From NCBI RefSeq assembly GCF_058153355.1, contig NZ_CM177019.1: 64,000 bases of DNA. One strand, given 5' to 3'. This document shows, one piece after another, positions 20,898-23,325 of the stretch. The notes below the pieces were generated by a model. That model saw nothing but the letters and a program-made list of their open reading frames with translations. It was not told the DNA's origin and ran no database searches. The position numbers were made by a program, and so were the translations under genes. Position 1 is the stretch's first letter. Each line of letters opens with the position of its first letter.

Positions 20898-20911
20898 CAC
20901 AACCTCTCTAT

Positions 20912-20938
20912 AAAAAAGGTGCTACGGCACCTTTTTTA
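20912..20938 (+). terminator. Rho-independent terminator of cyoE / cyoABCDE operon
   Basis: GGTGC-tacg-GCACC hairpin (20918-20931) followed by TTTTTT, 15 nt after cyoE stop. Confidence 0.8.
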
Positions 20939-20952
20939 TTGTCTGAGAACAG

Positions 20953-20977
20953 AGATACGGCTAATAGCCGTATCTCT
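20953..20977. promoter_or_regulatory. perfect 11-bp inverted repeat (operator candidate 1) abutting the -35 of the toxin-antitoxin promoter
   Basis: GAGATACGGCT-AAT-AGCCGTATCTC, perfect palindrome. Confidence 0.6.
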
Positions 20978-21005
20978 TGACAGAGTGAGTATATGCACAT
21001 AAATT
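20977..21005 (+). promoter_or_regulatory. candidate sigma70 promoter of the antitoxin-toxin operon
   Basis: -35 TTGACA (20977-20982), 17-bp spacer, -10 TAAATT (21000-21005). Confidence 0.5.
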
Positions 21006-21010
21006 AATCA

Positions 21011-21027
21011 TACGGTTGATAGCCGTA
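21011..21027. promoter_or_regulatory. second inverted repeat (operator candidate 2) just downstream of the -10
   Basis: TACGGTTGATAGCCGTA shares the TACGG...AGCCGTA half-sites of operator candidate 1. Confidence 0.55.
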
Positions 21028-21081
21028 TTATGCATGAGATCGACTCCCTACGATTTCATTCAGTTAATCAAAGAGGTCATA

Positions 21082-21393
21082 ATGCCTGGAAAAACAGTCG
21101 CTCTACCCGATATCGATAAAACGCTGAAAAATGCGCGGGTTGAACTCAAAACCAGTCCCGACGCCAAAAACAAACTTCGTGAAGCTGCGCAAGCCGTTGG
21201 GGTAGATTTAAGCGCTTTTATTTTGAGCGCAGCTATGGAACGCGCCGAAAGTGTGCTTGATAACCAACGTCGCCGTGAGCTTTCGAATCAAAGCTGGGAA
21301 CTGATGAACCAACTCATCGCTGAACCTGCTCAACCGACGCTCGCCCTCAAGGCGTTAATGAAAAGGAAAAACAGCGATGGTCGACAAGCATGA
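21082..21393 (+). CDS. DUF1778/ribbon-helix-helix type II antitoxin (TacA/AtaR-like), 103 aa
   Basis: ORF 21016-21393 trimmed to ATG 21082, which follows SD AAAGAGG (21071-21077); small protein with the SAFIL...A..AE.VL pattern typical of DUF1778 antitoxins; 17-nt overlap with downstream GNAT gene. Confidence 0.75.
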   Translation: MPGKTVALPDIDKTLKNARVELKTSPDAKNKLREAAQAVGVDLSAFILSAAMERAESVLDNQRRRELSNQSWELMNQLIAEPAQPTLALKALMKRKNSDGRQA

Positions 21394-21919
21394 AGAGATT
21401 ACTCTGCCCATAGTCCTCTCCTGTAATTATCAGTCTGATATTACTTATCCTGGGCAAAAACAGTTTGATTGCGGTAACCCTGTTATCGATAAATTTGTAC
21501 GCGCATCGCTAAAGAAAAGTGTGCGTAATAGCGACTGTGCTGCTAAAGCACTTATTGACAGACAAAGTGGTGAACTGATTGGCATCTGTACTTTTACGGC
21601 ATATTCGCTGGAAAAACAACGCGTTTCTGGCGTCCTTCAGGGTTCACAACCTTCAGAGATTGGTGTTGTCAGATTAGTCATGTTAGGGGTAGCGCGGAAA
21701 TATCAAAAGCGGGGCTTTGGTCAGGACCTACTATGTGATTTTTTTGAACATGTAAAAATAATTCACCGGGCATTACCAATTAAAGGGGTTTATCTTGATG
21801 CTGACCCTGCCGCCATTAACTTTTATACTCGTCTCGGCTTTGTTCAGCTTTCAGCGAGGCCCAATGTTTTCGGTGCTGTACCGATGTTTTTAGCGATTCA
21901 GCATATTCTCGCGGCTTAG
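21377..21919 (+). CDS. GNAT-family acetyltransferase toxin (TacT/AtaT/KacT-like), 180 aa
   Basis: N-terminal FDCG motif, acetyl-CoA binding RKYQKRGFGQ (Q/R-x-x-G-x-G), C-terminal FYTRLGF with conserved Tyr; translationally coupled to the upstream antitoxin. Confidence 0.8.
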   Translation: MVDKHEEITLPIVLSCNYQSDITYPGQKQFDCGNPVIDKFVRASLKKSVRNSDCAAKALIDRQSGELIGICTFTAYSLEKQRVSGVLQGSQPSEIGVVRLVMLGVARKYQKRGFGQDLLCDFFEHVKIIHRALPIKGVYLDADPAAINFYTRLGFVQLSARPNVFGAVPMFLAIQHILAA

Positions 21920-22909
21920 ATTATTATCGCCTCCGGCCATGGCAAGTTTTGCCTCAGCCGGGGACTGAGCAGCGTTACCACTTTTGTTCAATTGCCCCGC
22001 TTTCATCAGGTCCACATCCTTGCCTTTAATGGTTGCCGTTGCGGCAACGATTGTGGTCCTTATTGCTGCACAAGATTTTCGTTCAAATTCCGGTTTATAA
22101 AGAATAAGCAACGAATTACTGGTAAATGAATCAAGCCGGTAATCTGTAAAGTTAATATCCAGTCGGTTTAAGCCGAAAGGTGCAAAGCCGACCGTTTGAA
22201 TAGTTTCCTTACCTGACGGACTCTTGATGTTGTACGTAACACGAAGATTGGCCACTTCGCCTAATTTATTGGTTTTGGCAAAGAGGCTATCCATACAGGA
22301 AAAACCTTTATCTAAAAAATTATCCCGCATTCCAGAACGGGTAATCGTGATCACAGGTAACGTATCGTCAACCGTTTTTCTGTCAATCATATCTTTTCGA
22401 CAGGCGGCCATAAAGTCTTCCGGACCAGCATAAATGTGAACACCCTTATCAAGATATTCTTTCGCTTTACTACAATCCACCTCGACATACTGACCATTGG
22501 CGTACATCATGCCCAACCTGGACCATGCTAAATTCACACCGCGTTGCGTAGCCTGATTAAATAACGTATACGCTTTGGCGTAATCCACTCGCACCTGTTC
22601 ACCTTCGTAGTAGATATTCCCCAGCGCTAACGGAGCTTCTTCATCACCTTGTTTAGCGGCTAACTCGAACCATTTAATGGCTTCCTGAACGTTGGGTTTG
22701 GTATCGTAGCGGGGCTGATAATATTCCCAGCCTAACAGGCTTTGCGCGTCGACATCCCCCGACTCAGCCATTTTATGCAGTGTCCTTATCACATCGGGGG
22801 CAGGCTTTTCACTGTATATGCTGTCATACAATTCATGCGCTTTCTCGCTTGCCAGTGAACCTTGTGAGGCAATTAATAAAATAGCCAATAAACTCTTTTT
22901 ATTTAACAT
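21890..22909 (-). CDS. secreted Sel1-repeat (TPR-like) protein with ~170-aa C-terminal domain of unknown function
   Basis: 339 aa; signal peptide MLNKKSLLAILLIASQGSLA; Sel1-like repeats (AQSLLGWEYY..., EAIKWFELAAKQGDEEAPLALGNIYYEG, AKAYTLFNQATQRGVNLAWSRLGMMYANG); 3' end overlaps GNAT gene 3' end by 30 bp. Confidence 0.7.
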   Translation of the reverse strand: MLNKKSLLAILLIASQGSLASEKAHELYDSIYSEKPAPDVIRTLHKMAESGDVDAQSLLGWEYYQPRYDTKPNVQEAIKWFELAAKQGDEEAPLALGNIYYEGEQVRVDYAKAYTLFNQATQRGVNLAWSRLGMMYANGQYVEVDCSKAKEYLDKGVHIYAGPEDFMAACRKDMIDRKTVDDTLPVITITRSGMRDNFLDKGFSCMDSLFAKTNKLGEVANLRVTYNIKSPSGKETIQTVGFAPFGLNRLDINFTDYRLDSFTSNSLLILYKPEFERKSCAAIRTTIVAATATIKGKDVDLMKAGQLNKSGNAAQSPAEAKLAMAGGDNNLSRENMLNR

Positions 22910-23325
22910 AAATAACTTTTATGCATCCATCACTATATTTTTCAATATACCTAACCACCAAACATCCACTTCATGAATAAATACACAGCCATAACAACCT
23001 CAGGTAATAAGTAAACATTTAAGCTGAAGCAGAATAACCAGCACCTCCAACACCTCTATTTATTACGATAAAATAACATCATCCTTTAATAAAAAATCAC
23101 ACGCTCATCAACAAATCCGAAAATAATATCATTCGTGGCAGGATAAAATCAGGTGAGCTTTTCATTTGTTATATTTAACACACAAAGTATTAATGGCAAG
23201 AATACGAGAGAAGCGCATGCCTGACGTAAAAATCACGCTCTTATGTAATATTTACTCATTAACACTCTGTTTACCCAACATGCGCTCCGCACTACACTAT
23301 GTGGGCAATTTTTTAAGAGGTGGTA

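Follow-up and report, generated by a model that had tools for sequence, protein, structure and literature searches.

The question raised by this locus is whether two overlapping genes between cyoE and yajR are merely further members of the family of GNAT toxin-antitoxin systems, or whether they can be equated with one particular system for which mechanism and target tRNA have been established. The genes lie in a window of 64,000 nucleotides, that is the whole stretch of DNA analysed here, and all positions given below are counted from its first letter. RefSeq labels them generically: the 103-aa product of the upstream gene appears as 'DUF1778 domain-containing protein' or 'TacA family antitoxin', and the 180-aa product of the downstream gene only as 'GNAT family N-acetyltransferase'.

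The gene pair and its protein families

The open reading frame listing and the sequence agree on an operon in which the antitoxin gene lies 5' of the toxin gene on the same strand and overlaps it. The antitoxin gene, itaR, extends over positions 21082-21393 of the plus strand (ATG at 21082, TGA at 21391-21393) and encodes a protein of 103 aa and 11.4 kDa. The toxin gene, itaT, for a GNAT-type aminoacyl-tRNA N-acetyltransferase, follows at 21377-21919 (plus strand; ATG at 21377, TAG at 21917-21919; 180 aa, 19.9 kDa). An overlap of 17 nt, which an earlier sequence-only reading of this DNA had described, links the two genes at 21377-21393 (plus strand), where they are read in different frames; the same overlap is annotated in Escherichia coli HS as well as in strains 2020CK-00188 and 2013C-4282. 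This arrangement makes translational coupling of itaT to itaR plausible. Independent initiation at itaT would also be possible, since a Shine-Dalgarno-like AAGGA is located on the plus strand within the 3' end of itaR (21363-21367), 9 nt ahead of the start codon of itaT.

For itaR, the ATG at 21082 is preferred over a TTG at 21016 on the basis of a Shine-Dalgarno-like AGAGG seen by direct reading of the plus strand 5 nt upstream of the ATG (21072-21076), the RefSeq annotation and the published mass of 11.4 kDa. Initiation at the TTG would give a 125-aa ItaR, the start of which lies inside the second of two palindromes described below and some 10 nt downstream of the -10 hexamer. Toward its 3' end, itaT contains two terminator-like matches (21836-21861 and 21870-21884), which are weak and fall inside coding sequence; no feature is claimed for them.

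The 103-aa protein combines a ribbon-helix-helix (RHH) N-terminal part with a TacA1/DUF1778 domain. Residues 19-96 match the Pfam family TacA1 (PF08681, E=1.3e-17), which we take to be the former DUF1778, and weaker RHH-type matches in Pfam and NCBIfam point to NikA-like, MobA and RelB proteins. The NCBIfam matches of the antitoxin are all sub-threshold and of the RHH type (MobA, RelB, TraJ). Among antitoxins of solved structure it resembles KacA (5ZGN, E=3.5e-11) and AtaR (6AJM chain C, E=8.6e-09). Together with the Pfam match, these similarities uphold the original description of the protein as DUF1778-type.

The 180-aa protein had been recognized as a GNAT toxin from three segments, all of which are found where they were said to be: FDCG at residues 30-33 (nt 21464-21475), RKYQKRGFGQ at residues 107-116 (nt 21695-21724) and FYTRLGF at residues 149-155 (nt 21821-21841). 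The acetyl-CoA loop of the type Q/RxxGxG/A reads Q110-K-R-G113-F-G115, and the catalytic Y150 is present. Three Pfam GNAT families match (PF13508, E=1.6e-07; PF13673, E=2.6e-06; PF00583, E=8.3e-06). In NCBIfam only generic GNAT models (RimI, PaiA, MshD) are hit, all of them below threshold, and no dedicated model passes, which leaves NCBIfam uninformative about the subfamily. The best match in the PDB is 7BYY, the structure of crystallised ItaT(G115D) from E. coli HS, which covers the full length of the protein (residues 1-180) at E=1.3e-115; with the Pfam matches, it confirms the assignment as GNAT toxin. Far more distant PDB matches follow to KacT, AtaT and TacT. The entries 6AJM and 6GTS, which we take to be AtaT, and 5FVJ, presumably TacT, are listed by the PDB search only as acetyltransferases.

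Correspondence with itaRT of E. coli HS and predicted target tRNA

The match to 7BYY leads to the ItaR-ItaT module of E. coli HS (EcHS_A0500/A0501; RefSeq ECHS_RS02485/ECHS_RS02480), a module that BL21(DE3) carries as well. Over the 838 nt of the two genes, the alignment with HS is free of gaps and shows 97.4% DNA identity. ItaT shares 176 of its 180 residues with HS ItaT (97.8%; differences Q131R, A151T, T161R and A164V), and the itaT genes differ by 11 synonymous and 4 non-synonymous codons. ItaR is identical at 100 of 103 positions (97.1%); A6V, T7A and V11I are the only exchanges, and from residue 12 to the end the two antitoxins are the same. The masses computed for the products, 11.4 and 19.9 kDa, compare with published values of 11.4 and 19.8 kDa (PMC6125619). 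The two loci further agree in the lengths of 103 and 180 aa, the 17-nt overlap and the gene order. In HS, itaRT is inserted between cyoE and yajR, and a convergent gene for a 'tetratricopeptide repeat protein' separates itaT from yajR. The order in the window is likewise cyoC, cyoD, cyoE, itaR, itaT, a Sel1/TPR gene on the opposite strand, and yajR. This neighbouring Sel1 gene differs more from its HS counterpart, with 86% nucleotide and 84% amino acid identity and a 3' frameshift in the window copy.

The near-identity and the position between cyoE and yajR identify the locus as an allele of the characterised module and not as a mere member of the same family: it is very probably an allele of itaRT, a chromosomal type II toxin-antitoxin operon that would act like the HS copy. 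The sequence-only reading had listed ItaT among the characterised relatives of the toxin; the family was thereby correctly chosen, but it was overlooked that the locus is itaRT itself. The module is already known and has been experimentally characterised in HS, and the finding is correct but ordinary. While its significance beyond correct annotation is small, the names itaT and itaR connect generically labelled RefSeq genes with an established mechanism and tRNA target.

HS ItaT is toxic when produced alone, is neutralised by ItaR, with which it forms a tight complex, and loses its toxicity upon exchange Y150A; it acetylates Ile-tRNAIle (Wilcox et al., 2018; PMC6125619). Val-tRNAVal and Met-tRNAMet were later reported as further substrates (Zhang et al., 2020; PMC7367177). 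The latter study also assigned roles to individual residues, with V36, I37, F40 and M102 forming a hydrophobic pocket for the aminoacyl moiety, G115 belonging to the acetyl-CoA loop, Y150 acting as general acid, L133 residing at the dimer interface, and K39, R42, K46, K47, R50, K80 and R82 making up a basic patch for tRNA binding (PMC7367177). Ribosome profiling identified isoleucine codons as the primary pause sites caused by ItaT, the toxicity of which is counteracted by peptidyl-tRNA hydrolase (Pth), as described in a 2022 NAR study (PMC9177977). For the HS allele, induction with versus without antitoxin, a mutant of the catalytic tyrosine and mass spectrometry of aminoacyl-tRNAs are thus already published. 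That the HS toxin depends on G115 as well as on Y150 is likewise established by published experiments.

All 14 functionally implicated residues of ItaT, whether they belong to the aminoacyl pocket, the catalytic centre, the acetyl-CoA loop, the tRNA-binding patch or the dimer interface, are kept in the window copy. The sequence-only reading was therefore too pessimistic in stating that sequence does not reveal which tRNA is the target, because the experiments on the HS allele combined with the conservation of 14 out of 14 residues allow a prediction. From the conserved aminoacyl pocket and the HS data we infer that the window's ItaT would act mainly on Ile-tRNAIle and secondarily on Val- and Met-tRNA. 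Toxicity and its neutralisation by ItaR may be carried over from the 97.8%-identical HS toxin in the same way, given the protein identity of 97-98%, the synteny and the conservation of every functionally tested residue.

The window's ItaT is accordingly pictured as a dimeric GNAT enzyme that would acetylate Ile-tRNAIle as its main target and Val-tRNAVal and Met-tRNAMet as secondary ones. An aminoacyl-tRNA blocked in this manner should be unusable in elongation, ribosomes would pause with an isoleucine codon in the A site, and the pausing would inhibit translation and stop growth. Binding of ItaR would neutralise ItaT, and the resulting complex would repress its own promoter, presumably via two 19-bp palindromes that bracket the -35 and -10 elements.

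Other systems of this kind share the architecture and not the locus. KacAT from Klebsiella pneumoniae (5ZGN) likewise pairs a GNAT toxin with a DUF1778/RHH antitoxin, and its operon is arranged in the same way. Of the antitoxins with a solved structure, KacA comes closest; the match between KacT and the toxin has E=1.7e-06, and the pair stems from another species and another locus with only a distant sequence relationship. AtaRT from E. coli O157:H7 and TacAT from Salmonella Typhimurium belong to the same family of GNAT toxins that acetylate aminoacyl-tRNA. Like ItaT, AtaT and TacT possess the catalytic tyrosine and the Q/RxxGxG/A acetyl-CoA loop, and their solved structures are matched with E values between 1e-05 and 1e-03. 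Substrate preference differs within the family, AtaT being broad with a bias for Gly-tRNA and TacT preferring Gly-tRNAGly, and in a tree of GNAT toxins ItaT falls into clade B, AtaT into clade A and TacT3/AtaT2 into clade D (PMC9177977).

Candidate promoter, candidate operators and competing interpretations

A sigma-70-type promoter candidate precedes itaR on the plus strand at 20977-21005, with TTGACA (20977-20982) and TAAATT (21000-21005) separated by a 17-nt spacer. With 10 of 12 consensus positions matched, it is the best site in the region. Both hexamers are unchanged in HS, and the spacer differs there at three positions. The 172-bp region upstream of HS itaRT raised reporter expression about 40-fold; the ItaR-ItaT complex repressed it, whereas ItaR alone did not (PMC6125619).

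Two palindromes bracket the -35 and -10 hexamers and are candidate operators for the ItaR-ItaT complex. Palindrome 1 (20951-20977) has perfect 13-nt arms, AGAGATACGGCTA and TAGCCGTATCTCT, abuts the -35 hexamer and contains, as found by repeat search, a 19-bp core, ATACGGCTAATAGCCGTAT, at 20955-20973. Palindrome 2, ATACGGTTGATAGCCGTAT, at 21010-21028, was detected by repeat and motif search as a second copy of this core and is situated shortly after the -10 hexamer, about where transcription should start. In the entire 64-kb window the core occurs only at these two places, while 0.02 matches would be expected by chance. Palindrome 2 is identical in HS, whereas palindrome 1 carries two mismatches there and is perfect in the window.

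The text of Wilcox et al. (PMC6125619) does not mention operators, palindromes or inverted repeats, and a literature search for ItaR/ItaT from 2021 on returned only unrelated papers, with neither operator mapping nor a physiological role among them. The candidate operator palindromes, and likewise a 1-bp deletion in the Sel1 gene treated below, go beyond the reports in the literature searched.

The preferred interpretation, an itaRT allele that behaves like the one of HS, has to be weighed against three others. According to the first of these, the locus is itaRT, and A151T, Q131R and T161R/A164V have weakened or strengthened the toxicity or shifted the aminoacyl-tRNA preference of the toxin. 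The four substitutions are real, and two of them lie close to functionally tested residues: A151T adjoins the catalytic Y150 and Q131R is two residues away from L133 at the dimer interface, while T161R and A164V are C-terminal. Two of the four add positive charge to an RNA-binding enzyme, and the window form is in the minority, being found at an identity of at least 99% in 103 genomes versus 1265 genomes with about 97.4%. On the other hand, the residues for side-chain recognition (V36, I37, F40 and M102), G115, Y150 and the tRNA-binding residues are all unchanged, the antitoxin shows no difference beyond residue 11, and allele and antitoxin are intact in about 100 genomes. A functional shift of this kind is thus considered unlikely. 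There is an equally slim chance that the minority allele differs in potency or tRNA preference and that its perfected palindrome might alter the tightness of autorepression; if this were true, a natural allelic pair would be at hand for dissecting the specificity and regulation of GNAT toxins.

Much less probable still is a reading of the 180-aa product as a common GNAT without toxicity, such as a RimI-like or small-molecule acetyltransferase, that happens to be encoded beside a small DNA-binding protein. The NCBIfam matches to RimI, PaiA and MshD that speak for it are weak and sub-threshold, and the Pfam matches are generic for GNAT enzymes. It is effectively refuted by the 97.8% identity to an experimentally proven toxin, and the next solved relatives, KacT, AtaT and TacT, all originate from GNAT toxin-antitoxin pairs. 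In addition, the partner carries a TacA1/DUF1778 domain and the operon with its 17-nt overlap has the layout of the family. Hardly any weight can be given, either, to the idea that the module is decaying or silenced, for instance by read-through of the convergent Sel1 gene, whose frameshifted end runs into the 3' end of itaT. Loss of one base pair at 21994 indeed lengthens the minus-strand Sel1 reading frame to 21890, 30 nt into itaT, but itaR and itaT are full length, their products are identical to the ones found in strains whose Sel1 gene is intact, neither the promoter nor either palindrome is damaged, and the change in the homopolymer may simply be a sequencing error. The itaRT allele acting like the HS copy consequently remains the favoured interpretation.

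The cyoE-yajR island and its Sel1/TPR gene

Of 5426 complete E. coli genomes, 1368 contain the 838-nt itaRT pair, and all matches but one are chromosomal. Identities of at least 99% define the window allele (103 genomes) and identities of 95-99% the HS-like allele (1265 genomes). The recurrence of the same pair with the same overlap in HS and in this number of genomes places the association of the two genes far beyond chance. About one in four complete E. coli genomes carries the module, a variable accessory island. In strain BHUCD02 the site is empty and only 148 bp separate cyoE from yajR; comparison with this strain delimits the island to about 20941-23246, or some 2.3 kb that comprise itaRT and the convergent Sel1/TPR gene. 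Its G+C content of 0.33-0.49 contrasts with 0.50-0.57 in the flanks. At 22800-23250, upstream of the Sel1 gene and at the island's right end in front of yajR, there is a very AT-rich stretch (G+C 0.33-0.38).

Directly after the cyoE stop codon, at 20910-20939, a perfect hairpin with 13-nt arms (ATAAAAAAGGTGC ... GCACCTTTTTTAT) is found, with an A-run on one side of its stem and a T-run on the other. It resembles an intrinsic terminator that works in both directions and is likely the one that serves cyoE. Genomes that lack the island retain the hairpin, as do those that carry it, and it delimits the island on the left. None of the defence-system models in PADLOC matches ItaR or ItaT, so that a catalogued anti-phage role receives no support here.

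The whole 2.4-kb interval between cyoE and yajR reaches an identity of at least 99% in only 15 genomes and lies at 80-90% in 1342. It is so rarely conserved because the Sel1/TPR gene is far more diverged than itaRT, and the island is therefore a mosaic. This suggests recombination inside the island or a much faster evolution of the presumed secreted Sel1 protein.

The Sel1-repeat (TPR) gene (21890-22909, minus strand, convergent to itaRT) encodes three Sel1 repeats according to Pfam, together with an apparent signal-peptide-like N-terminus. Compared with the closest genomes, the deletion at 21994 shortens a C-run from CCCCC to CCCC, by which the last 6 codons are frameshifted, the reading frame is extended from 311 to 339 aa and the 30-nt overlap with the 3' end of itaT arises. 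Strains 2020CK-00188 and 2013C-4282 have identical ItaR and ItaT proteins and an intact 311-aa Sel1 protein (WP_000932788.1). Possible origins of the frameshift are an error in sequencing the homopolymer and a genuine event specific to the strain. In E. coli strain C5 (NZ_CP010122.1) an IS3-family element splits the Sel1/TPR gene, which is annotated there as two TPR fragments; the gene has thus been disrupted independently in other lineages.
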